Assembly: GCA_043228905.1 (NCBI GenBank)
Contig: JBHGNT010000498.1
Coordinates: forward strand, 1 to 22,714
Source of the DNA: Azolla caroliniana
Taxonomy: Eukaryota > Plantae > Polypodiophyta
Reading direction: 5' to 3'
Length of the DNA stretch: 22,714 bases
A program made the translations under genes and the position numbers. Below the pieces are notes generated by a model, which saw only the letters and a program-made list of their open reading frames with translations, ran no database searches and was not told the DNA's origin. Shown here in pieces: positions 1,323-22,714 of this stretch (position 1 is the stretch's first letter; the number at the start of each line of letters is the position of its first letter).

Positions 1323-1699
1323 CCATACTAATAGTCATGTTAATTTAACTAATCAATTCATGATTATATGAAAACACTTTGATGCAGATTCGTGGGCTTG
1401 TTGATAATCAAAACTTTAGTAATGTTGACCATCCTGATTATGTATGCGCCGATTCTTGCTAATTCATAATTTTAACATTGTACAAAAAAAGAGATTCCAT
1501 GAGTTTCTAATTTCTTGGTGTTCTTGGAAACTCTTTACAACAATAAGTTCTTGAAGGAGCTAGGTCTACCTCATCATCAAGAGTTTTCGACACCCCACCC
1601 TAAACAACAAACACTCGACTCTATCCTCATTGGTTCTAATTAATCCTCTTTGATGATCACTTGATGTGCTTGTGGAGCACATTAAGTGTATTTAAGTCC

Positions 1700-2050
1700 A
1701 AATTTAGAACTATGGACACTATTATCAACTTGGCCAACAAAATCATATTTGAGATTGAAGCCGCCCTATAATCAAATAAGGAAAATTTATCAATGGACTT
1801 ATGATAAAGATAATAGGGTTGATAGGATCTTGTGAGTTCCATGAGCAACAAGACAAGTTTGACAGAAATGTTCTCAAAGTCAATATTTTGGGCTACCATG
1901 TAGTTTGTACGAATGTCTTCCCTTTTATAAATCCCACATCTTTCATAATAAAATTACTTTCATGGTGATAATACCAATTACAACAAATTTGGATGATGAA
2001 TCTCGTCTTTCCTTTATGGGCATGTCATTGGCCTCTCGACCTTCACAACA
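1700..2050 (-). pseudogene. Highly decayed Ty3/gypsy-like integrase fragment (HHCC zinc-binding region into core)
   Basis: Minus-strand pieces in shifting frames read HES..., IRTNY.W*P, HFCQTCLV, PINPII..P and MILLA, in the order expected for H..H/YxWP/CxxC/PLxPI/ILVA. Many stops and frameshifts. Confidence 0.35.
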
Positions 2051-2282
2051 AAGAGAGCTGATTCCCACTCTTTCTATGAGCATAAGAAATACATTATTGA
2101 TAGTCTGCCAAAAATATTTTTATGTTGCCAATCATTATGTAAACCCAATAAATTTCCCTTTTATCTCATTGTGGGCATGTGAAATCTCTCGCCCCTCATA
2201 TGAGAGCTCCCTGCTCATGAGCGTATGTTTATTAAGGGGTAACACATTTAACACAATTAAGGGTTACCTAGCTATTATCCTA

Positions 2283-2416
2283 CACCACATATCAATAATC
2301 AATGTTCTAACATCTACAAATATGTGACTTGCTTTTGTTCACTTTACATATAACAAGTTGTGTCATTCATATGCACCACATATCAATAATCAATGTTCTA
2401 CTATGTGCAAATATGT
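2283..2416. repeat. Short direct duplication (about 43 bp, 2 copies)
   Basis: caccacatatcaataatcaatgttcta...caaatatgt occurs at about 2284 and about 2374. Confidence 0.75.
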
Positions 2417-2724
2417 CCAATATTACCAAGCCTACACTTTTAATCATGTAGTTACATGATGATATAATACTTAAGTGTCGCGCATACACTCGCATAGGGT
2501 TCAATCCTCACCTACACAACTAAGCTGGAGATGCAAACTAGAGTTCCTTCGTGCAAGTGCAAATATCTTCGAGTGGTAACATGCAATTAAAGGGGAGGCC
2601 GATAATTTTTGGAAGAAAATCTTAGGAAGAGTGTTCTCCTATCTTTGATTTGAACCTTAGCATGAATCATTGTCTTAACTAAGATTTCATGAGTCATCTT
2701 TCAATCGTTCTCATAATAGCATGA

Positions 2725-2975
2725 CTGAAGCTTCTTCCATGAATCATTATTCTAACTTAGATTTGAAGCTTCTTCCAACACCAATCTTTTGCACTCAGAT
2801 TTGAAGCTTCTTCCGACACAAATCTTTTGCACTCAGATTTGAAGCTTCTTCTAACACGAACCTTCTACACTTACATTTGAAGCTTCTTCCAACACGAATA
2901 TTCTGCACTCACATTTGAAGCTTTGGCTAACATGAGTCCTCCTATCTCTGATTTGAAGATTCTTTCATGAACCAT
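2725..2975. repeat. 38-bp tandem repeat, about 6 copies
   Basis: Unit gatttgaagcttcttccaacacgaatcttttgcactca starts at about 2760, 2798, 2836, 2874, 2912 and 2950. Confidence 0.85.
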
Positions 2976-2979
2976 GTGT

Positions 2980-3600
2980 GGTTCATTGATTGGGAAACTT
3001 CTTCCTCATGTTCATATTTCTTCTCATATTCTCATGTAGATTTCTTTCATGTTCTTCTTTCTTCTCATATTCTCATGTCCAACATGAGTCTTCCTATCTT
3101 CAATTTGAAGTTTCTTCCATGAATAGTAAGTGAGTGGTTCATAGATAGAGGAGATTTTTCCTTATGTTTATCTTTATTCTAATCATCTCATGTTCATCTT
3201 TTTTTCATGTAGTTTTTTTTATGTTCATCTTTCTTCTCTATTCCTTATGTAAATCTTTTTTATGTTCATCTTTCTTCTCTATTCTCATGTAGATATTTTT
3301 CATGTTCATCTTTCTTTTCTTATTATCACGTTCTTCTTTCTCTTGTAGGTTTTTTTCATGTTCATCTTTCTTCTCTTATTCTCATGTCCAATATAAGTAT
3401 TCCAATCTTCGATTTTAAGGTTCGTCTATGAATCATAAGCGGTTCATACATAGAGGAGCTTCTTTCGCATTTTCCTCTTATTTTTCATATTCTTCTTTTC
3501 ATCTTTCTCTTGTGGATTCTTTTCTTGCTCATCTTTCTTCTCGTATTTTTGTGTTCATCCTTTTTTTTTTTTTCAAAAAAACATATTCTTCATTAGTAGA
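2980..3600. repeat. Degenerate CT-rich ~40-bp tandem repeats
   Basis: Recurrent (tt)catgttcatctttcttctc(t)attctcatgtagatttt. The same family recurs at about 7900-8160. Confidence 0.7.
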
Positions 3601-3759
3601 AATTCTACATCCATGACAAAATGATTAGACTGGCAACCTTATAAAGGCTGTAGCCGTGGTAGACCAATAAAAACTACAGAGACTCAGAGTATAAAACTAC
3701 AAAGACCGGTGAACACCTACAAGAATGTTCTTTCCATCACCTATGATCATTGGCTTAAA

Positions 3760-4473
3760 CACTGAACTGTAATGAGAACGTTTCAAGAGACTTTCTTTCG
3801 AAATGAAAGCATATCCAATAGTTCATGTACTTTCTTTAAGAGTCCACCCTTAGCATATGGCTGAAGCAATGCATTGCCAACAACCTGGTTTCTCTTCAGC
3901 TTGCCCATCTTCTACATATCCTGTAATGAGAACATTGCAGGAGACTAACTTTCGAATTGGACGCATATCAAACATTTCATGTACTTTCTCTAAGACTCCA
4001 CACTTAGCCTATAGATGAAACAATGCATTTCCAACAACCTGGTTTCCCTTCAACCTGCCCATCTCCTCAAACTTTATATGCATTTCTCTACCCTTTTCTA
4101 TACAAATGTGACATAAACTTGAACTTGGATTTGAATTGAAACCATATCCTGTAATGAGAACATTGCAGGAGACTATCTTTCCAACTTTCACTTGATCTAT
4201 CCTACCACCTTTTGAATCCATGTCCATTAAATAAAAACCATTGCTTGTGCATGTATTTGTTGGTCATTTTCCACAACATTCAGTTTAGCACAAGCTTTCG
4301 GAAGAATAGAAATAACATAATCGGTAGGTGTTGCATATGTACAAACCAAACTTTCCCTGCTACCTTACAACGTTTTCCTTCAACATGTGTGTACTTGCAT
4401 TCCATTGAAATTTTGAATCACAGACTTTTGGATATAATAATTTGAAATATACTTCATAGAATACAACAAACAC
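3760..4473 (-). pseudogene. Scrambled/decayed PLS-class pentatricopeptide repeat (PPR) gene fragments
   Basis: Minus-strand translation gives PTDYVISILPKACAKLNVVENDQQIHAQ and GREMH...GNQVVGNALFHL*AKCGVLEKVHEMFDMRPIRKLVSCNVLITGYVEDGQAEE. These match PLS PPR consensus motifs (GNALVDMYAKCG..A..VFD.LP.RDVVSWN.LI.GY). There is a ~154-bp internal duplication (ctgtaatgagaac at 3767, 3921, 4149) and a splice acceptor ttttgcag|gtg at 4474. Confidence 0.8.
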
Positions 4474-5578: not shown

Positions 5579-6893
5579 TTACTGTGGAGTATTCAGTATA
5601 AATGGTGCCGGTGGCGAAAACAACCAACGAGGTGGAACTCTTCTAATTCCACTTAACATCATCTCGTGTTGCATCCAAGAAAATAGGAATAGATGACCAA
5701 ACTCTTCTAATTCTCCTTATTTTCCAATTAGCTACATCTCCAAAACCCCTATAACTATCATATTCACCTTTAACCATATTTACCAATAATTCCCAGAAAG
5801 ACTTAACTTGATCCACAACATTAGTTTGTTCATCATTATATATTTTAGAACACCTCGCTTTCCAAATAATCCATAAGGCCAAAGAGGAGATAATGTTCCA
5901 AACATAACACCTAGAAAAAAACTTGACTCCCTACAAGGAGCTTGATGTATCGTACACCTGAAAACTTTTCACATGTAAAGTCAATGATGAATTATGATGA
6001 TGATAAAAAACTGTTTGTTGAGCCAACGTACCCCAAAAGATCGCACCCCACGTAAATATAACTGCCCTATACTTATGACCTAAAAGCCTAAGAATACGAG
6101 ACCAAAAACATTTGACCGTAACACATTCCCAAAAATCATGATGCAATGTCTCAGATGCAAAACCACACCTACCACATGATCGATCAAGTATTGTTCCCCT
6201 CAATAAAGCTCCTACTGGCAATGCATAATGAATTATTAACCATCGAAAATGCAATATCTTGTTCATACATTTAAGTGACCAAAACTGTTTCCAGAACTTC
6301 AACATATACGAAGATGACACATTACCTTCCTCCCAATATATTTTCCCCTTGGGTATCGACTCTATCTCATTTAACAAAAAATTTCTACCCAATGCCACAG
6401 AATATGTGAAAAATGGAAGAACTTTCGTTTGCGGAGTGTCAGACCTAGGCAACATCCAACCATAATCCGATGGATCCCACTACAGATTAGCAATTGGCCT
6501 AGAGTGTAAAACCCACATATGAGATGAGTACTTAACAATTAATGGATTAGGATCTATAAATATCTTTTTATCTAATCTAGCAATTACTCTCACTGACAAC
6601 TGCTTGGCAGAAGACATAATTGAAGACTCCTCCTCCACTAAAAACAACCTACCGTTATCTAGAACTGCACAAAAGTAGAGGCTACTATTTTGATGATATA
6701 AACGAGCTCCTATAAGTATATTCAATGTCGAAAACATACCATACCAATTCTGAAAATGACCAAATTGCAAAGTTGGCAGTGTTACCTGATACATCGTTTA
6801 CACTTGAGAGAGCATAGTGTTTGCCCCTCTAAAATTAGATACCCTAGTCTTTTGGTCTTGCAATGAAGTCTGCAGAAAATTTACCCAATCCGT
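5579..6893 (-). mobile_element. L1-clade LINE ORF2 C-terminal fragment (zf-RVT region), decayed, truncated by the LTR at 6894
   Basis: ORFs 5931..6455 (FWKQFWSLKCMNKILHFRWLIIHYALPVG...CGRCGFASETLHHDFWEC..VKCFW) and 5643..5882 (ALWIIWKARCSKIYND) match the plant L1 zinc-knuckle/C-terminal motifs. A frameshifted tail RVPPRWLFSPP...* ends at about 5579. Confidence 0.85.
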
Positions 6894-6955
6894 TGTCGTG
6901 AAGAATGTGCTTCACGATATAAAAATGAGCTTAAATATTGTATTTAATAATATTT

Positions 6956-7012
6956 GAGAGACTTGAACCCACATCCTTATATACGAAGTACAATGTACAT
7001 ACCACTAGGCTA
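6956..7012 (-). other. tRNA-like Pol III cassette (A-box/B-box) inside LTR, copy 1
   Basis: Minus strand TAGCCTAGTGG (A-box) ... GGTTCAAGTCT (B-box), 43 nt apart, with a partial anticodon arm ttgta-cttcgta-tataa. Confidence 0.7.
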
Positions 7013-7092
7013 GGCTATTTATTTGTAAAAGTTTGTAAAAAAATGTGCTTCATTATATAAGAATGAAGCTATATATTGTATTGAGTAAAATA

Positions 7093-7149
7093 GAGAGACT
7101 TGAACTCTCAACCTTGTATACCAAACACAAAGCATACACCACTAAGCTA
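7093..7149 (-). other. tRNA-like Pol III cassette inside LTR, copy 2 (137-bp tandem duplicate of copy 1)
   Basis: Minus strand TAGCTTAGTGG ... AGTTCAAGTCT. Anticodon arm ttgtg-tttggta-tacaa (TGG, Pro-like) and perfect T-arm gagag-ttcaagt-ctctc. No acceptor stem. Confidence 0.75.
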
Positions 7150-7400
7150 GGTTAGTTATTTTAGAATGCATTTTCATCATTATACTTATCACATATCTAT
7201 TTTCATACATAGCCATCATGCATCACATGCAATGCATGTGCGCCAAATGGCGATCATGCATTACGTGTAACTCATGCATTACATGCATGCCATGCTCCCA
7301 TACATTACCATATGCATGGCAACACTTATATAAAGAGGGGCAAGGAAACAAGAGGGGATCAAGAGAGAGGGAGAAAATAATACAATCAAGTAGAGAAGAC

Positions 7401-7456
7401 CAGCTCATTAGGTGAAGAACCTTGCGTTTCAAAGTTGAGGTCGTGGGTTCAAATCA
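7401..7456 (+). other. Additional degenerate tRNA-like A/B-box cassette downstream of the LTR TATA
   Basis: CAGCTCATTAGG ... gaggtcgtgGGTTCAAATC, offset 45 nt. Confidence 0.5.
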
Positions 7457-7899
7457 AGGGTCGGTAGAGAATGTGTTCAGTTTGCGATCAAGGATTGTAA
7501 AGTTGGTAAAATATTGTCTTTTTAATATACATCATGTTTATATCATATACTCTTGCTTCTTGAATCATGCTTTGTCTTAATCTTCCTTCTTAAATCATTC
7601 TTTGTCTCTATCTTCTATCTATTCTCATCTCTGTCTCTCTCTCTCACACATTACTTGTAACTCTTCTTCTTGCCATTCTTAACCTTTCTAACATCACAAT
7701 ACAAGCCTTATTAAAATTTAAGTTCCTTCAACTCCCCTTAACCTTAGTCCTTGCGACTTCGCCGCACGAACCACAACTACCCCGACACCGCAACCGTACG
7801 AGTTGGTCTATTATCCATTGCAACCCATAATAACCTAGTTCGTAAACCGAAAACACATGTCGCTTCATCACTAAATAAAGGATTCCATAACAACGGTTG

Positions 7900-8748: not shown

Positions 8749-10867
8749 GTAAATTGATTATTGTACGTTAAGTACATGATAGTTCTAAGTCTATTCAACT
8801 AATTCTTCATAAGCCTTCAACTATTACTTTAGTTTCCTATGCTTTCTAATCTTTAATGAAAACTTAGAACTAATTGTATTCAAACTTGTCTACATTACTA
8901 ATATTTGTTTAGTCTCCTACATTTAATGTTGTTCAATAAAAACTTTTTACTTTTCTTCCAATGTGCATTAGTACTAATAATGTTTTTACCCATGTTTAGT
9001 ATTTTTAAATAATAACTTAGTATTGTCCTCCACTGTGCATCAATGCTAATTATGTATTTACTGATATTTAGTACTTTTAAATAACAATGTAGTATTGTCC
9101 TCCCATGTGCATCAATACTAATTGTATATTTACCTATATTTAATATTTTTATATAACAACTTAGTATTGTTGTTCTATATGCACCATCACTAATTGTCTA
9201 TTCACCTATACTTAGTATTTTGAATAATAACTTAGTATTGCTATCAAATGTGCATCAGTACTAATTATGTGTTTACCCATGTTTAGTATTTTTAAATGAC
9301 AACTTAGTATTGTCCTCCCATATACATGTCAGTACTAATTTTCTACTCACTTATGTTTAGTATCTATAAATAATAACTTAGTACTGTCCTCCCACGTGCA
9401 TCGGTACTAATTGTGTATCTACCTAAGTTTAATATTTTTAAATAAAAACTTAATATTGTCCTCCCATGTGTGTCAGTACTAATTTTTTACTCACGTATGT
9501 TTAGTATCTAAAAATAATAACTTAGTACTATCCTCCCATGCACATCAGTACTAATTGTGTATTTACCTAAGTTTAATATTTTTAAAAACTTAGTACTATC
9601 CTCCCATGTGCATCAGTACTAATTTCATATTTATGCAAATGTAGTATTTTTAAATAAAAACTTAGTACTATCCTCCCATGTGTGTCAGTACTAATTTTTT
9701 CTACTCACTTATGTTTAGTATTTTTAAATAACAACTTAGTACTATCCTCCCATGTGAATCAGTATTAATTGTCTATTCACGTGTTTAGTATAGATATAAA
9801 TAAAAACTTACTAGTGTCCTCCCATGTGAATCACTACTAATTGTCTATTCACATATGTTTAGTATCTACAGGTAATGACTTAGTATTGTCCTCCCATGTG
9901 CATCAATACTAATTTACAACATAGTACTATCCTTAATTTACAACTTAGTATTGTCCTCCCACGTGCACAAGTACTGATTATGTTTTAAGTCATGTAAAAT
10001 ATTCTTAATTTACAACATAGTACTATCCTCCAATGTCTATCAGTACTAATTCTATTTTAAGCCATGTAAAGTATTCATAATTTACAACCTAGTACTGTCC
10101 TCTCACATGAATCAATACTAATTATGTTTTAAGCCATATAAAGTATTCTTAATTTACAACTTAGTATTGTCCTCCCACATGCATAAGTGTTGATTATGTC
10201 TTAAGCCATATAAAATATTCTTAATTTACAACATAGTACTGTCCTCCCACATCTATCAGTACTAATTCTATTTTAAGCCATGTTAAGTATTCTTAATTTA
10301 CAACTTAGTACTTTCTTCTCACATGAATCAATACTAATTATGTTTTAAGCCATGTAAAGTATTCTTAATTTACAACTTCATATTGTCCTCCCACGTGCAC
10401 AAGTACTAATTATGTTTTAAGCCATGTAAAATATTCTTAATTTAGAACATAATACTATCCTCCCACGTTTATCAGTACTAATTCTATTTGAAGCCATGTT
10501 AAGTATTCTTAATTTACAACTTAGTACTTTCCTCTCACATGAATCAATACTAATTATGTTTTAAGCCATGTACAATATTCTTAATTTACAACTTACTAAT
10601 GTCCTCCCACATGCACTAGTACTGATTATGGTTTAAGCCATGTAAAGTATTCTTAATTTACAACTTAGTACTATCCTCCCACAATCAACACTAATTCTAT
10701 TTTAAGACATGTTAAGTATTCTTAATTTACAACTTAGTAATGTCCTCCCACGTGAATAAATATTAATTAAGTTTTAACCCATGTTAAGTATTGTTTGGCT
10801 ACCTATGATGTACTAACTTAGTATTGTTACTAATGTTTGTTGGCTATCTGTGATGCAAAACGCCCAG
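8749..10867 (+). other. 2119-bp phase-2 GT-AG intron of the transposase
   Basis: Splicing tcaag|gtaaat...cccag|gtac joins FIS-R-YFSLTN in frame between two catalytic motifs. Confidence 0.75.
8960..10790. repeat. ~72-bp intronic minisatellite (~25 units, two subfamilies, 216-bp trimeric higher-order repeat in the distal part)
   Basis: Core aacttagta(c/t)tgtcctccca(c/t)(a/g)tgcatcagtactaatt. aatttacaac recurs at 10151, 10223, 10295, 10367, 10439, 10511, 10583 and 10655. Confidence 0.95.
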
Positions 10868-11520: not shown

Positions 11521-12390
11521 TGTCGTGCCTTTCGGCTCCGGATCGTTTGCGTGAGTCGGGTGGGAACCACCGAGGTTTTGGACTAGGAGGAGGAAGAATT
11601 TGAGGCTAATCTAGTTATGAATATGAATAGATTATAAGAAAGAGATATAGAAACTTGTGAATCCCACAAGTATAATTGTTTTAGTTTATCTAAATCGTAG
11701 TAATAAATTGAAATAATTTAGAATAGATTAGAGTAGATTGAGAAAAGAGATCAAACCTTGTGAATCCCACAAGTATTACATTAATCAATATTTATGTAAG
11801 AATATGAATTTAGATTGAAAGAGATAGATTATCTTAAACTTCGTGAATCCCACGAGTATATTTTATTGATTGTTGGTGTTTTAGGAAATATATCCAATTT
11901 CCCAAATATTTTTCACACACCTATTACATTGTGCTCCCCATCCTTATGTAGTGATGGGAGAGACTAAGCATAGCTACATGCTTTTTTTTCTAATATGTTC
12001 ATGCACACTAAATGTGCATGTGATGCTTTTCTAATCCTTGCTTTTATTTGCTAAATATAGTGCTCATGCACGCTAGATGTGCATGAGTCACTTTTTAGTC
12101 GCTTGCGTTTTTCTATAAAATATTCACGCACTCTAAAAATACATGATTTACCTTTTAATAAAGGTAGGCGCAAATAAAGCACTTATAGTTATTAAATCTA
12201 TTTATAGAACACTAAAGATAAGGTAGCATAATGGTAAAGTTGAGGTTTGGCTACGTGGAGGTATAGGGTTCAAATCCTGCCCTATGCACGTGATAAATAT
12301 CTTGATATATTATTTTATTTATTTATATGTAATTAAATCGGTTATATTATTTTTTACTTTTTCACGTAGTGTACGAAATACACTACGACA
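11521..12390 (-). repeat. 3' LTR (870 bp)
   Basis: TGTCGTGCC...CACTACGACA. Identical by eye to 13985-14854 except C11550 versus T14014. Confidence 0.95.
12224..12277 (+). other. tRNA-like A-box/B-box cassette in LTR U3, antisense to the element (second copy 14688-14741)
   Basis: TAGCATAATGG (fits TRGCNNARYGG) and GGTTCAAATCC (consensus B-box), 43 nt apart, with tttggct at the anticodon-loop position. Confidence 0.75.
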
Positions 12391-13110
12391 CTCGCCCCCT
12401 CCGAACCCGCACATCCTCCGGTATGTGCCGAAGTTGCCGATGCTCGTTGTCTCCCCTTCATCCTCCGTTTGTCCCGCTATGTCAACTTTGTCTCTCCATT
12501 TTGAGTAGACCCATTCTTTCCACCCGAACCATTGTCGCCATCCGATCCACCATATTCTTTGTTCATTCTTTGCATTGCCATGAGTGGTTGTCATGGTCCC
12601 TTGTGGTACTCTTGAGCATCTCGGTGTGTTGTCTCTCTCCACTCCGCGCTTGTCTTCCGTAGGTTCTACCCACGCGTCGATGTCGACCTCCGAATACGTG
12701 CTCGCTGTTAGGTCCTTGTGCGGCTTTAATGCATGCTTTATTTCTCGATGTTGCGCATGCGTCGTATTAGGCCGTAGCGCATGCTTCGTATTCCATCGTA
12801 GTGCATGCGCCGTATTACCCCGTAGTGCATACTTATTTTTGCACCGTAGCGCGTGCTTCTTTTTGCGCCGTAGCATGTGCTTCTCTTTACGCCGTAGCAC
12901 GTGCTTCTTTTTGTGTCGTAGTGCGTGCTCCATATTACATGCTTCTCCCATCGTAGACCCGACCTTCGCGTTGTCATGCTTTTGTTTACATCGGAATTTC
13001 AGACAGATCATCTTCCATCCGAACCGGCTTCCGACTTTACCTTCCTTCTTGCCACCTCCCGTCTCTCCGGTCTCACGTTGGTTCTCGGACACAACCGCCG
13101 AAGTACGGTA
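12319..13110 (-). CDS. Frameshifted continuation of the gag ORF: basic 8-aa repeat region and Trp-rich segment, function unknown
   Basis: ORF 12319..13092 overlaps the gag ORF end and repeats its TSAVV...QRETGET motif in a different frame. Contains the HALRxxxx repeats and WWIGWRQWFGWKEW, and runs into the 3' LTR. Confidence 0.5.
   Translation of the reverse strand, partial: YRTSAVVSENQRETGETGGGKKEGKVGSRFGWKMICLKFRCKQKHDNAKVGSTMGEACNMEHALRHKKKHVLRRKEKHMLRRKKKHALRCKNKYALRGNTAHALRWNTKHALRPNTTHAQHREIKHALKPHKDLTASTYSEVDIDAWVEPTEDKRGVERDNTPRCSRVPQGTMTTTHGNAKNEQRIWWIGWRQWFGWKEWVYSKWRDKVDIAGQTEDEGETTSIGNFGTYRRMCGFGGGECRSVFRTLREKVKNNITDLITYK
12391..12402 (-). promoter_or_regulatory. Polypurine tract
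   Basis: Minus strand GGAGGGGGCGAG immediately before the 3' LTR. Confidence 0.85.
12723..12938. repeat. 24-bp coding tandem repeat, ~9 units
   Basis: gccgtagcgcatgcttc-type units at 12771, 12795, 12819, 12843, 12867, 12891, 12915, plus two degenerate units at 12723 and 12747. Confidence 0.85.
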
Positions 13111-13946
13111 TTATCATCTTCCGTTGTTTCACCCATAGCCATGTTCTCCTTGGCTATCTCTCCTTCGTATGCATCGGCTTCGACCTTCGTTTCGTTGCCG
13201 CCACTTTCCTTATCTTCGGTGTTATGTCGACACCCGGGCTCTAGTACCGAAGTCTCCGAAACAATGGTGAAGGAATCCCTTCGTTCGTGCTCATTTACTT
13301 TGTCTTCCTCGTTGCCCTTCCGGTCCTCCACTTTTCCACCGACACATTCCGTCTCTCCGGTCTCACGTTGGTGCACGGGCACAACCGCCGAAGTCTCTGG
13401 AACCGGTGTGGGGATACCCTTTCGTCCTCGATCTTCCTCCTCCTCGTCCTTTGTTGGCCTCGACTTTGGTTCGGTTTTAAGCTCCCCTTCAATGTCGACT
13501 TGCGACTTTTCATGCATCTCCGAACCCTTCCGCATCAAGCTCTCCTTCGGTGGTAGTCGGTGGCCGCTTTTCACCCACTGTTGACCGCCGTTCGTGGACC
13601 ATGTCCTCGTCCGCTTCGGTCTTAGATAGTCATATGTGTCTCGTATAGCTTCTTCAAAGGACTCCCACATCGGGCTTTGTTGTCGTATCTCGTGGATTCT
13701 CTCTTGAAGCTCATCCGTAGCCACCCGGTTGAAAGATAACACTTGCAATCTTTCTGAGATACCATATCGCAACATCTCCATTTTGTAGTCACGTAGATAG
13801 CGTGACACGTCCTTTCCATCGAATTGCCCGTTCTGTTGCACGAGCCGTTGTACTACTGTCGTGATCTCCGACATCTCGCGTTGTTCTTGTAGCATTCTCT
13901 CGAACATCATCATCATCATGTTCATCGCCTCTTGTTGATTCTCCAT
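13008..13946 (-). CDS. gag: Gag-like protein (capsid-like N-terminus plus charged low-complexity tail)
   Basis: First ATG lies just downstream of the PBS. Sequence NGQFDGKDVSRYLRDYKMEM...WESFEEAIRDTY resembles the retrotransposon gag F.G.....FL..(Y/F) ... W..F...L motif pattern. Confidence 0.75.
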   Translation of the reverse strand: MENQQEAMNMMMMMFERMLQEQREMSEITTVVQRLVQQNGQFDGKDVSRYLRDYKMEMLRYGISERLQVLSFNRVATDELQERIHEIRQQSPMWESFEEAIRDTYDYLRPKRTRTWSTNGGQQWVKSGHRLPPKESLMRKGSEMHEKSQVDIEGELKTEPKSRPTKDEEEEDRGRKGIPTPVPETSAVVPVHQRETGETECVGGKVEDRKGNEEDKVNEHERRDSFTIVSETSVLEPGCRHNTEDKESGGNETKVEADAYEGEIAKENMAMGETTEDDNTVLRRLCPRTNVRPERREVARRKVKSEAGSDGR

Positions 13947-13962
13947 CTCCTTGCCACCCGCC

Positions 13963-13980
13963 TTCACGTCGGGTTCACCA
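13963..13980 (-). promoter_or_regulatory. Primer binding site complementary to tRNA-Trp 3' end
   Basis: Minus strand TGGTGAACCCGACGTGAA, 4 nt from the 5' LTR. The + strand TTCACGTCGGGTTCACCA equals the 3' 18 nt of plant cytosolic tRNA-Trp(CCA) as I recall it. Confidence 0.9.
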
Positions 13981-13984
13981 ACTG

Positions 13985-14854
13985 TGTCGTGCCTTTCGGC
14001 TCCGGATCGTTTGTGTGAGTCGGGTGGGAACCACCGAGGTTTTGGACTAGGAGGAGGAAGAATTTGAGGCTAATCTAGTTATGAATATGAATAGATTATA
14101 AGAAAGAGATATAGAAACTTGTGAATCCCACAAGTATAATTGTTTTAGTTTATCTAAATCGTAGTAATAAATTGAAATAATTTAGAATAGATTAGAGTAG
14201 ATTGAGAAAAGAGATCAAACCTTGTGAATCCCACAAGTATTACATTAATCAATATTTATGTAAGAATATGAATTTAGATTGAAAGAGATAGATTATCTTA
14301 AACTTCGTGAATCCCACGAGTATATTTTATTGATTGTTGGTGTTTTAGGAAATATATCCAATTTCCCAAATATTTTTCACACACCTATTACATTGTGCTC
14401 CCCATCCTTATGTAGTGATGGGAGAGACTAAGCATAGCTACATGCTTTTTTTTCTAATATGTTCATGCACACTAAATGTGCATGTGATGCTTTTCTAATC
14501 CTTGCTTTTATTTGCTAAATATAGTGCTCATGCACGCTAGATGTGCATGAGTCACTTTTTAGTCGCTTGCGTTTTTCTATAAAATATTCACGCACTCTAA
14601 AAATACATGATTTACCTTTTAATAAAGGTAGGCGCAAATAAAGCACTTATAGTTATTAAATCTATTTATAGAACACTAAAGATAAGGTAGCATAATGGTA
14701 AAGTTGAGGTTTGGCTACGTGGAGGTATAGGGTTCAAATCCTGCCCTATGCACGTGATAAATATCTTGATATATTATTTTATTTATTTATATGTAATTAA
14801 ATCGGTTATATTATTTTTTACTTTTTCACGTAGTGTACGAAATACACTACGACA
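13985..14854 (-). repeat. 5' LTR (870 bp)
   Basis: Direct repeat of 11521-12390, adjacent to the PBS. Confidence 0.95.
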
Positions 14855-15194: not shown

Positions 15195-15735
15195 CAATAT
15201 ATATCCTCTTTGGTTTTCCTAAAGTTTTTGGCGCTCTTATAGTGTTAATTGTTTCTAGTAATGTATATATCCTCTTTGGTTTGCTTAAAGTGATTGGTGC
15301 TTATATAACATTAAATTTTTTTAGTAATATATTATCCTCTTTGGTTTGCATAAAGTGTTTGGTGCTCTTATAGTGTTAACTATTTCTAGTAATGTATTAT
15401 CCTCTTTGGTTTTCATAAAGTATTTGGTGCTCTTGTAGTGTTAATTGTTTCTAGTAATGTATATATCCTCTTTGGTGTTCGTTAACTGTTTGATGCTCTT
15501 ATAGTGGTAAATGTTTCTAGTAATGTAATATCCTCTTTGGTTTTCATAAAGTGCTCTTATAATGTTAACTGTTTCTAGTACAATATATATCCTCTTTGAT
15601 TTTCATAAATTATTTGGTGCTCTTATAGTGTTAGCTGTTTCTACTAATGTTGATATCCTCTTTGGTTTTTATAAAGTGTTTGGTGTTCTTATAGTGTTAA
15701 CTATTTCTACTCATGTATATATCCTCTTTTGTTCA
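15195..15735. repeat. ~66-bp tandem repeat, ~9 copies, downstream of the transposase stop
   Basis: tcctctttgg-type motif at 15204, 15270, 15335, 15400, 15466, 15531, 15590, 15656 and 15722. Confidence 0.9.
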
Positions 15736-16150: not shown

Positions 16151-18317
16151 CTACATACTATTGAGTGACACTTCATCATCGGAGGCCAATAGGACAACAT
16201 CAAATGGTTCCCCTCCTTGGACCGGTGGCACCCCCCTTGAGTTTCCTACTTCGTGGCTGGTAGTTGTGTTTTAATCTGACTCATCATCGATGGTGTTTTC
16301 CACATCTTTCTTAGTACCCATGTGCTCCTCCTCGTGGACAATGCTAGAAACCTCATTCTTTTTATAGTCGTTCTCCTCTTCTAAATTGAATGTGGCGTTT
16401 TCTTCACAATCCTCATGTCTGGTTATGGTGTTGTCAGAGTCATCTTTTGTTCAAGGCATAGTCACGATCATAGAGTCTTCATCTCTTCACCATATGGTGT
16501 CCGAATCATCTTCTTGTATTTGTTCATCTCTTAGTTCTTGTCCAACTAAATTTGAATGCACCCAACAATACCAATGTCAATACCAATCTCAATAAACATA
16601 CAAGGTAAAGGTTCACACTCCTGCCCACCTATGTATATAATAGATCCTCTAGTTCTGTAGACTATGCTAGTACTAGCCAACCTAAGTATATAATAGATTC
16701 TAGTACTAAACCTACAATACAACTAATTGTAGAATGAAGTGTGTACTATGTTAGTACTAGCTCACCGAAATATAGGATGAATTCTAGTACTACACCAACT
16801 ATACACCTAAAGGTCTCCTGAAGTGTGTACTATGCTAGTACTAGCCCACCTAAATATAGAATGGATACTAGTACTAAACAAACTGTACAACTAATTGCAG
16901 AATGAAGTGTGTACTATGTTAGTACTAGCTCACCTAAATATAGGATGGATTCTAGTACTACACCAACTGTATACCTAAAGGTCTCCTAAATTTGTACTAT
17001 GCTTGTCCTTGCCCACGTAAATATAGAATGGATTCTAGTACTAAACCAATTGTACAACTAATTGTAGAATGAAGTGTGTACTATGTTAGTACTAGCTCAC
17101 TTATATATAGGATGGATTCTAGTACTACACCAACTCTACACGTAGAGGTCTCATGAAGTGTATACTATGCAAGTACTAGCCCACCTAAACATAGAATGGA
17201 TTCTAGTACTAAATCAATTGTACAACTAATTCTAGAATGAAGTGTGTACTATGTTAGTACTAGGTCACTTAAATATAGGATGGATTCTAGTACTACACCA
17301 ACTGTACACCTAAAGGTCTTTTGCAGTATGTGATATGCTAGTACTAGCCCATCTAAATATAGACTAGATTCTAGTAATAAACTAACTGTACAACTAATTA
17401 TTGAATGAAGTGCATACTATGTTAGTACTAGCCCACCTAAATATAAGATGGATTTTAGTACTCCAATTGTACGCCTAAAGGTGTCCTGAAGTGTGTACTA
17501 TGCTAGTACTAGCCCACCAAAATATAGAATGGGATTTAGTTAGAGAAGCATGTTTAGTACTACAACAACTATACACCAACATGTAAAATTAGTTACGATG
17601 AATGCACAAGAACTAAAGGACATAAATATCGATGCAACATATAGTATATGGAGCGAAACCAGTACTAAACCATGAATTTTCTATTTTCTGGTATGAATTG
17701 TGACCTAAACCAATACTTAAGCAACTATAAAATGGAGTCAGAAAGTTCAGAAAAACATAATAGCAGTATCACATACCAGAGGAGTGAAATTTGAAACCCA
17801 TAGCTAAGTACTATTCAGCTCCAATAGTAATTTTACAGTCCATACATGTAATTACTTTCTCAAAGTGGTACTTAGCACATAGCGTATGATATGTGTGCAA
17901 ACACAGTGTAATCACAACATCCATAGCCTCGAGCTTGAATCCAAGGCCACAGATACAAACATGCACTTGGAGACACAAACTACAACATAATAGCTAAAGG
18001 AGAAAAATATAAACTGTAGAAGGTAAAAGCAGAGATATCCTCACATGCATCCTAAGACTTCAAGACAATGTTTGTACTGGAGGATTCTCTATAATGTGAT
18101 GACTGGAGACGAGTAAAGACTTCATAGTCAACTTGAATGTCACTTGAACGTCATATGCAAAAACACATGCGCTTCACCCTTTCTTTGGTGTGTGTCTATT
18201 TACTTTGTTTGATGGGGGGTCCACGTTCTTTCCTTTGTGGGTGTCATCACTTCATCTTTGACTAGTGCTTTCTTTGTGGGTGTCTTCTTTTTCAATTTTC
18301 TTGTTATCACTTTTCTT
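16151..18317 (-). pseudogene. Decayed multi-exon gene: Lys-rich segment + RING-H2 finger + acidic tail, convergent with the transposase
   Basis: Exon ~18317-17777 encodes AC(+1 nt)CICGLGFKLEAMDVVITLCLHTYHTLCAKYHFEKVITCMDC (C-x2-C...C-x-H-x2-H-x2-C...C-x2-C; 17961-17835). Donor g|gtatgt at 17776, acceptor near 16629, and an acidic last exon (EEENDYKKNEVSSIVHEEEH...SDDEVSLNSM*) ending at 16151. Not in the ORF track because of stops. Confidence 0.65.
16650..17580. repeat. 84-bp intronic minisatellite with alternating A/B monomers (168-bp higher-order unit), ~11 monomers
   Basis: gaagtgtgtactatg(t/c)tagtactag-type monomer starts at 16736, 16820, 16904, ~16988, 17071, 17155, 17239, 17323, 17407 and 17488. 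Monomer ends alternate aaggtctcct / aattgtagaat. Confidence 0.95.
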
Positions 18318-20039: not shown

Positions 20040-22168
20040 ATAAATAGATAGATAGATTGTATTATCGTCTTCACGTGAGACCAAAAATATTACATTTCAC
20101 GTGATACATGTGAAAGTGAGTAGTGACTCTCGATGTTCAAGAACTTTACCAATGAATGTTGCAATCGAGAGTGCACATTGTGGTTTTGAGAGGAATTCAT
20201 GCAAGGATTGGGCTCGGTCGAAGAGATGTGGAAAGCATGGTCGAATATGATCCAAGTCAGAGCATTGTATCAAAGTGTGATACTCAGACTCGCGAACTTG
20301 TTTAAGGCAAAGTGTGCATAGTCGACCACTCTCATCACTTGTGCCCCAACGCCCTATCTCACATCGCAATGCATGTGAGCTAAGTCGCATGGAAGCAATG
20401 GTTCGAATGGCAGATAAGGTAATGGGCTCTAACATTTATCGATGTGTACGATTTCCCCGTTCCGCAAGAAAATGGTTTTTTAGTTAGGTGCAACATGTGT
20501 AGTATAATGTGTGAAGTGTGAGTCTCCACATTTGTCCCATCTCATGATACATTGGCGTTGCAAAAAGGCCTTATTTACAGAGGAATCTAATGATGCATCA
20601 TGAAGCAAGTGTCTCGCATCCCATCTACCAAACCATTTTTCTATATCTTGCATCCAACCAGAACACAAAATTTTGCTTTTATGCATCTTTTGGATCTTTC
20701 TGCTTGCTTCCCATGCAATTCTAGGAAGTTGATGTGAGGGACATTTTTTAACCTTAGGCATGTATTGAACAACCCTTTCCATGGCCATGATCTCAATGGG
20801 AAGCGATCCCGTCTCAAGGAGGAGGAGGCTGTAGGGTGTTTGTTACTTAACTTCGAGAAACTTTGTAAGAAAATGTTTTTGGACATTTTCAAACTCTTTC
20901 CACATAGATTTAGGGATGTTACCACCCCATACTTCCAACCCATAGAGAAGAACAGGTGTCACCAAAGTGTCGGAAAGATATTTCTTGAGGACCCAACACT
21001 TAATATCTCCAAGATTGCATGTGTTCTCAAATGCATTGTATGCTCGCTTACCCGCCTCTAAGCGGTGTGTAGCACATTCATTCCATCTATGATTTGAAGG
21101 AACTTCAAGGCCAACATATTTGAAGCTTTCCACACATTCAAGTGGCTCATTGTTGTACATAATGCATGGTTTATCTCGTTTTTGGCTCTTCACAAGCATA
21201 ATCTTTGTTTTAGAGCTATTGACACTTAATTTAGTATGCATGCAATTTTTTTCCAATGCCTTCATAAGCTTTCCAAAAAGCACTACATCATCTGCATATA
21301 GCAAAAGCATAATCACAACATTCCCAATGGCAACTTCTTCAACACATTCTTCCTTTGCAAACTTGGTAACCATTTTTTCCAGTTCATCAATGCATAGACC
21401 AAATAGTGTTGGTGAGAGTGGGCATCCTTGCTTAACACCAATAGTGCTTTTGAAAAAATCGAAAAGTTTATCTGTTATGCGCACACAACATATAACCGTC
21501 TCATAAATTCGGGAAATTGCAAGCATATATTCACTTGGCACCTCAAGTTCTTCCATTCGCCTCCAAAGATGCTCACGAGGTACCATATCAAAAGCGTTAT
21601 TGAAGTCTAGAAAGCAACAATATAAACCTTTACCTCTAAGATGAATTTCCTCTATTAATACTCGAAGGGTGACAAGGTGATCAATGATGCTATGGTGTTT
21701 TCGAAAGCCAGCTTGTCCAAAAGCTCTCTTACCATATTTTTTGCCTATATACTTATCTTTGATTCCATTATACATCCAAACAGTTTTGCCATTAATGAGC
21801 CAACCATGATAGTTCGATAATTGTTTACATTATTTAAATCTCCACCTTTATGTAAAGGTTTGATCCAATTTGTAGTCCAATCGTACGACATACCATGTTG
21901 CAATGCATCATTAAACATATCATTTATCCATACATGTGCGTCCTTTTCTGTCCATTTGAGCATTTTAGCCTTTATACATTGAAGATCGCTTACTTTTCGA
22001 GAGGCCAATTTCTTAAGTCCTATGCATATATCTTCAATTGTAAAGAAGGGTGACATATGTGAAAGAGAACCATAACACATCATCTTTCCGGCAAGAGATA
22101 ACTCATATAAATTCTTACAATGCATAAACAAGTCATGAAGAGTTAAGTCAACATAACTCTCAACACGT
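20040..22168 (-). mobile_element. RTE/RTEX-type LINE (RT + C-terminal CCHC), frameshifted, 3' end intact with (ATCT)n tail, 5' part interrupted by an LTR
   Basis: RT motifs NNYRTI, QAGFR, FLDFNNAFD.V, GVKQGCPLSPTLF, LLYADD and FKYVG across ORFs 21745.., 20843..21775 and 20480..20788. C-terminus RLSSHALRCEIGRW...CTLC...ESEYHTLIQC (20097..20435). Short 3' UTR, then atctatctatct at about 20046-20057. Confidence 0.9.
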
Positions 22169-22714
22169 TGTCGTGAAGATCCGTCACTACGTGCGGATTG
22201 TGAGGCGGAACCGCCGGGGTTTTGGACTGGAAGGACTCGAAGTTTGCACAAGCTTTAGCGAGAAAGGAATTAAGATAGATTGATAGAGAGAGAGAGAGAT
22301 TGAGATAAGATAAAACGCTTGACTTTAGATTGAGAGAGAGGTTAAGATTGAACTCTTGATTTTAGATTTGAAGAACAAGATTAATACATCATTTGGATAA
22401 CGAATTTTCTTCTTAATATTAATTTTGATATAAAGTACAAAGCTCTTGATAAAAATTTTACATTAGTCCTTTCATCTTTTTCCTCCCCTCTTTTATAGAT
22501 GCCCTCATGCATTTGAGGGTACAAGACATGGATAAAATGCATGTTTGCCATTTGGCGCTCATGTATTACATGTGGTGCATGATAACCATGTCACTAATTT
22601 TAGCTCTCATGTATGAGAATTTACATGTAAAGTTACAATGATAAAAATATAATTCCAAGAAAATGTGTTGTCTTAGTGGGAAGCCTATTGACTCTCAACT
22701 TGGAGGTGCAAGGT
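22169..22714 (-). mobile_element. Third LTR (U5 end at 22169, truncated by the window edge)
   Basis: ACGT|TGTCGTGAAG start. Shares ggaacc(g/a)ccg(g/a)ggttttggact with the LTR at 11521. Minus-strand TATA ctataaaagagggg at about 22486-22499. A-box-like TGTCTTAGTGG at 22669 with ggt at 22712. Confidence 0.8.

Follow-up and report, generated by a model that had tools for sequence, protein, structure and literature searches.

Small-RNA promoter modules in long terminal repeats (LTRs) are known from short TRIMs, where they presumably take the place of the Pol II promoter. The kinds described so far are Helenus and Cassandra (PMC10886601; 10.1101/2023.07.14.548913; PMC13570524). The closest described system is Helenus (TRIMp3), a group of non-coding TRIMs of 311-1263 bp with LTRs of up to 323 bp that contain tRNA-derived A and B boxes, do not form a working tRNA and for which an origin from a SINE was proposed (Kojima 2024, PMC10886601). 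In the copies included in the accessible part of the supplement, the boxes lie in sense orientation and presumably drive transcription; among plants, Helenus is known only from Selaginella, with a 5-bp target duplication and a primer site that begins differently from the one described below (PMC10886601). According to the accessible text of the same paper, 'not a few' Repbase LTRs resemble part of a tRNA and, since only TRIMs were analysed there, longer cases may sit undescribed in Repbase. The available sections on Cassandra TRIMs describe 5S-derived A, IE and C boxes in the LTR's middle part, present in every member and with demonstrated transcription (10.1101/2023.07.14.548913; PMC10886601).

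Two further systems bear on the locus described here. The Phygy lineage of Ty3/Gypsy non-chromovirus elements was described from Physcomitrella (Neumann 2019, PMC6317226; PMC6911290), and its reference elements show an NCGN 4-bp target duplication in 100% of 186 elements and a tRNA-Trp primer in 81%; the accessible part of that description mentions no tRNA-like LTR module (PMC6317226). In the full-text literature, with subscription papers mostly outside the search, we found no report of such a module in Phygy or moss LTRs. As far as the available sources go, tRNA-derived LTR sequence is already known from Helenus (PMC10886601), but not in the configuration reported below. Regarding chromatin, the tDNA barrier at cen1 of S. 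pombe is described as orientation-independent and as requiring TFIIIC and Pol III (PMC2040200), and B2 SINE boundaries as involving CTCF and blocking the spread of open chromatin (PMC8136502), in the parts of these papers at hand. In both cases, tRNA-type promoters or tRNA-derived repeats bound chromatin domains, as we propose here by analogy, but they are host loci or free SINEs and do not lie in an LTR.

The window, i.e. the whole stretch of 22,714 nucleotides of DNA that was analysed, contains an element with two LTRs (element A), a solo LTR and a third LTR (LTR C), all of which carry pairs of A and B boxes, hereafter termed cassettes (Table 1). Element A consists of two 870-nt LTRs, which differ at 1 of 870 positions, and a 1.6-kb internal part without pol, and is flanked by the target duplication ACGT/ACGT. 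The first ~146 residues of its gag-like ORF are 70% identical to the ORF of locus L077, and no Pfam match to the ORF was obtained. Its primer-binding site, which we take to be of the tRNA-Trp type in agreement with the Phygy reference, is common to at least 122 loci on metagenome contigs; the same site follows the relatives of the solo LTR (L042, L045 and L064) and is seen in members of the LTR C family in loose ends of reads. The target duplications are of the 4-bp NCGN type (ACGT/ACGT, CCGT/CCGC and the flank ACGT, with ACGT also in loose ends), and the relative L009 has the order RT-RNase H-integrase. The three window LTRs are thus probably Phygy-type Ty3/Gypsy LTRs, the duplication being observed and the Trp label our own assignment. 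This lineage makes a moss the probable host; the name Phygy also appears in a liverwort paper (PMC12885004). Compared with the pol-coding Phygy reference elements of 7.7-10 kb in the accessible part of PMC6317226, element A is a 3.3-kb derivative without pol.

Table 1 Position of the retrotransposon features and cassettes in the window.
Feature	Position	Strand	Remarks
Element A	11521..14854	-	non-autonomous Phygy-type Ty3/Gypsy element, 3334 bp
5' LTR of element A	13985..14854	-	TGTCG...CGACA ends, terminal hairpin
3' LTR of element A	11521..12390	-	
TATA-like box, element A 3' LTR	11942..11951	-	degenerate; position assigned by analogy with other LTRs
Primer-binding site, element A	13964..13980	-	
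Polypurine tract, element A	12391..12410	-	
Gag-like ORF, element A	13008..14069	-	truncated; stop to stop
Cassette, 3' LTR of element A	12224..12280	+	tRNA-derived; tRNA positions about 8-65
Cassette, 5' LTR of element A	14688..14744	+	identical to the 12224..12280 copy
Solo LTR (family S)	6894..7787	+	target duplication CCGT/CCGC
TATA box, solo LTR	7325..7338	+	consensus match only
Proximal antisense cassette, solo LTR	7093..7149	-	anticodon arm TGG and T-arm intact, no acceptor stem
Distal antisense cassette, solo LTR	6956..7012	-	within 137-nt tandem duplication 6904-7161
Sense A/B-type cassette, solo LTR	7402..7455	+	offset 44; B-box 119 nt downstream of TATA
LTR C (third LTR)	22169..22714	-	3' part, cut by window end; flank ACGT
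Antisense cassette, LTR C	22669..22714	+	B-box cut
Sense-cassette candidate, LTR C	22326..22399	-	degenerate; 17.6 bits; place matches solo-family sense copy

Several repeats were seen in these LTRs in addition. R/U5 of element A contains three short palindromic repeats (11653-11671, 11757-11773 and 11840-11856), CATG-rich hairpin repeats lie between the cassette and the TATA of its 3' LTR (11999-12123), with CATG-rich tracts at the matching place in families A, S, C and D, and 10-bp terminal hairpins of family-specific sequence occur at the LTR 5' ends (6894-6919, 14828-14851). The internal part of element A has a 24-nt tandem repeat (12753-12929) inside a minus-strand open frame.

Six A/B pairs with at most one mismatch per box were found in the window, four of which have an offset of 43 nt between the box starts (12224/12267 and 14688/14731 on the plus strand, 7012/6969 and 7149/7106 on the minus strand), as stated by a first-pass annotation of this DNA; in 100 Markov simulations, the mean was 0.32 pairs (0.02 with offset 43) and the highest number 1. 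The four pairs represent two distinct units and their duplicates, from the twin LTR of element A and the 137-nt tandem duplication of the solo LTR, respectively. In the 3' LTR of element A, the A-box (12224-12234) and the B-box (12267-12276) lie antisense in U3, 114 nt from the LTR 5' end and about 270 nt upstream of the TATA-like box, with T runs 36 and 73 nt past the B-box. The pair annotated at 22669/22712 in LTR C is likewise present, with one mismatch in the A-box and a B-box of which GGT (22712-22714) precedes the window end. Since nearly all of the depth at 22671 and 22680 in three runs has letters fitting the A-box consensus and the other copies, the window copy in LTR C has private changes. 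Its B-box is probably completed beyond 22714, judging from the D-type relatives of this cassette, of which 5 of 6 have GTTCAA. The proximal copy of the solo LTR has a TGG anticodon arm with 5/5 pairs, a perfect T-arm and no acceptor stem, exactly as annotated. Resemblance to a tRNA was picked up there by Rfam, as one weak match to model positions 8-63 whose 22.6 bits fall short of the gathering score of 29, but not by ARAGORN, which called no tRNA and gave mostly noise at low stringency.

All five U3 copies in the window are antisense and lie upstream of the TATA-like box. The annotation had taken this arrangement to be general, which does not hold because of the sense copies in L074 and in the four solo-family LTRs, including the one at 7402-7455, downstream of the TATA, which the annotation had overlooked. 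In family S, a sense copy stands 118-142 nt after the TATA in 4/4 LTRs (solo LTR, L042, L045 and L064), with the B-box core kept in all four and a spacer that differs strongly between members; in addition, the antisense cassette of this family is tandemly duplicated and both copies are kept. L074 combines a primer site, an internal part of ~190 nt and a polypurine tract, and the LTR behind them carries a sense copy in its U3.

Like Helenus, as far as it is covered by the available material, the Phygy-type LTRs have conserved, tRNA-derived A and B boxes, and in Helenus-1_SMo the 43-nt offset and the place of the AGGT agree with those of the Phygy cassette (supplement, PMC10886601). The identical spacing, to which the annotation had attached weight, is thus the ordinary geometry of an intron-less tRNA and unremarkable. 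Unlike in the accessible Helenus copies, the LTRs here are 600-920 nt long, keep a TATA, belong to ORF-bearing elements and carry the cassette mostly antisense in U3, sometimes in 2-3 copies per LTR. Element A with its 3334 bp and gag-like ORF, and the window LTRs of 870-894 nt, lie outside the range of Helenus, and the sense copies are additional to the five antisense U3 copies; the closest and most Helenus-like case is L074 with its 190-nt internal part and sense copy. Cassandra, as described in the sections at hand, resembles the Phygy-type LTRs in that the LTR of a plant element contains a Pol III module whose boxes are conserved and whose spacers vary, but the module of the Phygy-type LTRs is tRNA-derived, optional and mostly antisense, and an Rfam scan of the window gave no 5S match.

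Relatives were collected by scanning metagenome contigs for the LTR end plus the primer site, a pattern that is blind to the cassette. This yielded at least 122 loci, 80 of which have long flanks; almost all of these 80 were drawn from a single series of short-read assemblies, in which LTRs may be chimeric. U3 was covered in 45 LTRs, namely two window LTRs, 39 5' LTRs and 4 3' LTRs, some of them partial. The short loci L081-L122, 42 in number, did not enter the U3 counts. Among the matches listed, the cassette is present in 14/45 LTRs and 5/17 U3 clusters, including 8 of the 39 5' LTRs, and absent from 31 LTRs and 12 clusters; every member of the five cassette-bearing clusters has it. Of the 37 antisense pairs upstream of the LTR 3' end, 11 had offset 43, one of them (L031) outside its LTR, compared to 0/42 sense pairs and 1/38 pairs in internal regions. 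A matrix trained without a family still recovered the copies of that family, and neither the fixed-spacing matrix nor an indel-tolerant covariance model, applied to the window and L001-L080, gave further convincing copies in the cassette-free LTR families. No matches were obtained in viral contigs.

The cassette was found in 0/7 LTRs directly following integrase versus 6/9 without pol upstream (P=0.011), a contrast that is only a hint, the families being related. A rule that the cassette occurs only in pol-less elements was rejected: besides this relatedness, a remnant of integrase survives in one of the six, and the gag-protease ORF of L077 is intact as far as its contig extends. Being absent from 31/45 LTRs, including all seven directly after integrase, the cassette is dispensable. 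In a gag tree of 24 rows (L047, L068 and L061, with less than 70 residues, were dropped), the cassette label changes four times; this tree, in which branches are long and two ORF types without relation to each other are combined, shows patchiness only.

Some relatives showed additional features. L002 has an A-family U5 joined to a U3 of short repeats that resemble partial antisense B-boxes and do not pass the B-box pattern. At L078:274-350 (+), the A-box half alone was matched in antisense, weakly (17.9 bits), inside the apparent LTR of a nested Copia-type element. In U5 of L012, L013, L016, L017, L024, L061 and L062, a conserved motif ~60 nt from the LTR 3' end looks like a sense B-box in some of the cassette-free families; this is probably chance variation of a shared U5 motif. 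In L001, L067, L048 and L046, the primer site is directly followed by a long non-gag ORF of unknown family, with no Pfam match for those of L001, L067 and L048, and in L009:35-2542 the RT starts only ~180 residues past the primer site, apparently without a full gag; L009 and the elements with non-gag ORFs are possibly complementary partial elements.

The statement of the first-pass annotation that the U3 sequences around the cassettes do not align had to be given up: on the TATA side of the cassette, U3 aligns between the solo LTR and LTR C with z 19-31 over 150 nt. In LTR C, this S-type U3 adjoins a D-type cassette, with a spacer 63-77% identical to those of D-type cassettes, and D-type U3 is in turn joined to different U5 and internal regions. 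From these mixed combinations of cassette, U3 and U5 in the sequences, we infer an exchange between families by LTR recombination.

Within the families sampled by primer site, the 12 tRNA-invariant box positions are variable in 5/48 columns versus 317/971 in the flanking U3 (P=7e-4), while the spacer (24/88 columns, P=0.34) and the other, non-box core positions (20/76) vary at the flank rate; the samples are small and related. The annotated expectation of a slower decay than in flanking U3 is thus borne out for the boxes and not for the spacer. Between families, identity is 0.88 for the A-box core, 0.85 for the AGGT motif, 0.78 for the B-box, 0.32 for the spacer and about 0.3 for the flanks, the box values being partly circular because boxes guided the discovery; AGGT motif and spacing were not used as selection criteria. 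One indel event was seen between the boxes or in the cores versus 6.6 expected (P=0.01), and none between the boxes in reads among the rows listed. Offset 43 shows that the cassette resisted indels.

In run X1, read depth, which was determined from contigs and is a rough measure, was even from the cassette into its flanks. Run X13 comes from another, related organism; there it amounted at 80% identity to 1600-4300 over 12240-12289 and to 320-610 and 46-212 in the flanks, i.e. several-fold to more than tenfold below the cassette; a free SINE in that organism could also yield this excess. The invariant B-box cytosine 12271 is changed by C>T in 26%, 27% and 36% of the depth in three runs, compared to 6% in X1 and 9% and 17% in the other two runs for C>T at 12254, and to 28% in X1 for the tolerated A state at 12272, which is about equal to 12271. 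Either subfamilies with a broken box were amplified or 12271 is a hypermutable site. Family D has lost the first A-box base. Overall, the promoter boxes show what looks like selection-like conservation, with the 12271 variant counting against strict selection. The proposal that the lineage keeps the module under selection thus stands as regards the slower change of the boxes, but not as a general rule in view of the many LTRs without a cassette. The cassette is a real feature at the level of the lineage, with a putative function.

Our preferred reading, which we hold tentatively and would put slightly below an even chance, is that the cassette is an optional, swappable docking module for TFIIIC/Pol III in U3 with a barrier or open-chromatin role. 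It builds on where the cassette is observed to lie, on its constant spacing, on boxes that change more slowly, on its scattered occurrence and on the varied cassette types beside homologous U3. The tRNA-derived pair of Pol III boxes, which only some Phygy-type LTR families have in their U3, would be bound by TFIIIC, and the bound module would hold the nearby LTR promoter open as an optional barrier instead of making element RNA. Conserved boxes with a free spacer, a pattern known from Cassandra and Helenus as well, are the expected signature of a TFIIIC site and not of a tRNA; the antisense orientation, the T runs and the retained TATA make the cassette an unlikely source of element RNA; and, by analogy with the orientation-independent barrier of fission yeast, the occurrence of both orientations would fit a barrier. 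A more specific version, possible but rather unlikely, is that Phygy LTRs use a captured, swappable tRNA-gene promoter module as a self-insulator against the spread of methylation. TFIIIC/Pol III in U3 would then shield the LTR Pol II promoter from methylation spreading from neighbouring repeats, which would help mainly the AT-rich, pol-less families amplify.

The box pair might instead be an active antisense Pol III gene, whose short product, an RNA of about 100-200 nt with complementarity to the U3 end of the element RNA, would regulate the element or decoy silencing. We regard this as unlikely; it would be compatible with the barrier reading. A run of at least four T follows within 118 nt in 15/16 copies, the exception being L055, and a run of at least five A is found in the first 130 LTR nt of 7/13 cassette LTRs versus 3/31 others, but runs of four A are equally common in cassette-free LTRs (25/31), and the cassette LTRs are AT-rich (GC 0.38 vs 0.49). 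A T-arm-like hairpin is common to families A, D and E; it is shifted by one base against the tRNA register, and 3/5 of its pairs have changed on both sides (2/500 shuffles). Its register was chosen by eye and related sequences inflate the shuffle test, and we treat it as a lead. Family S keeps the anticodon and T arms, the anticodon stem being 97% paired with G-U pairs on the antisense strand, but its covariation is not significant (55-123 of 500).

Similarly unlikely, in our estimation, is a neutral passenger, i.e. an old tRNA or SINE fragment that became fixed in some U3 lineages and was carried along by amplification and recombination. Such a passenger agrees with the absence of the cassette from most families, with a spacer and non-box core that vary like the flanks, with the common broken B-box variant, and with a 43-nt spacing and AGGT motif that are inherited tRNA geometry. 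On the other hand, spacing and boxes persist between families whose spacers are at chance identity, the boxes vary about three times less than the flanks within families, the cassette outlasts its flanks in the related organism of X13, and family S duplicated the cassette and kept both copies. Concerning its origin, we infer that the cassette was captured from a tRNA gene or a tRNA-derived SINE. An acceptor stem, a poly-A tail and a credible target duplication proper to the cassette were all missing from the 16 copies; a poly-A run of at least six is absent from all 16, and an 8-nt AT-rich direct repeat occurs in only 2/16. A free tRNA-derived SINE, which the annotation had also set apart from the cassette, was rejected on the lack of tail and own target duplication and on the even depth in X1, and a functional tRNA gene on the lack of a complete cloverleaf with acceptor stem. 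Upstream homology among families A, D, E and S is not significant save for one borderline pair, so a single origin is not supported by alignment.

Ty3 integrates at tRNA genes via the Pol III machinery, and the boxes could similarly recruit this machinery and target integration of the same or another retrotransposon next to the LTR, which we consider very unlikely. Degenerate tRNA genes do adjoin two Phygy LTRs, and many loci are nested in other elements, but both of these LTRs are without a cassette, Phygy targets NCGN, and no well-supported loose ends just upstream of the A-box were seen among the rows listed. The two cases are a degenerate Arg(CCG) tRNA gene about 200 nt from the LTR start (L027:1146-1233 (+)) and a ~370-nt tandem array of tRNA-Met-like units beside the LTR (L016:2233-2320, 2603-2690 (-)); a Phygy insertion bias near tRNA genes is possible. 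Least likely of all is a tRNA mimic, as considered in the annotation, with a folded RNA acting in priming, packaging or stability: the inter-box length is fixed, family S keeps two arms and the conserved box bases are also tRNA elbow bases, but there is no acceptor stem, families A, D and E have lost the anticodon arm, most of the D-arm does not pair, the anticodon varies, the cloverleaf, not significant over 16 copies (138/500), is not kept across families, and the element's own RNA would carry the reverse complement.

In the Phygy-type LTRs, Pol III-type boxes adjoin an intact TATA, mostly antisense, in long LTRs of a high-copy bryophyte lineage. If the barrier reading in its self-insulator version were true, this would be a use of a tDNA barrier by a selfish element in a plant. 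Sister families with and without a cassette offer a natural comparison for asking whether tRNA-type boxes serve as plant chromatin barriers and whether transposons exploit them, and gene targeting in laboratory moss makes this question testable. In these genomes, the cassettes also give rise to false calls of tRNA pseudogenes.

Outside the LTRs, the window contains fragments of non-LTR retrotransposons with RVT_1 and zf-RVT domains (20843-21829 and 5931-6479, both on the minus strand), with LTR C and the solo LTR each placed within or next to one of them. Satellite arrays with units of 72 nt (8935-10792), 66 nt (15198-15733) and 84 nt (16661-17540) are present as well, with higher-order periods of 216 nt in the 72-nt array and 168 nt in the 84-nt array. 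An isolated B-box-like hairpin at 2446-2519 (+), recognised in low-stringency calls only, is possibly a decayed tRNA or SINE relic.
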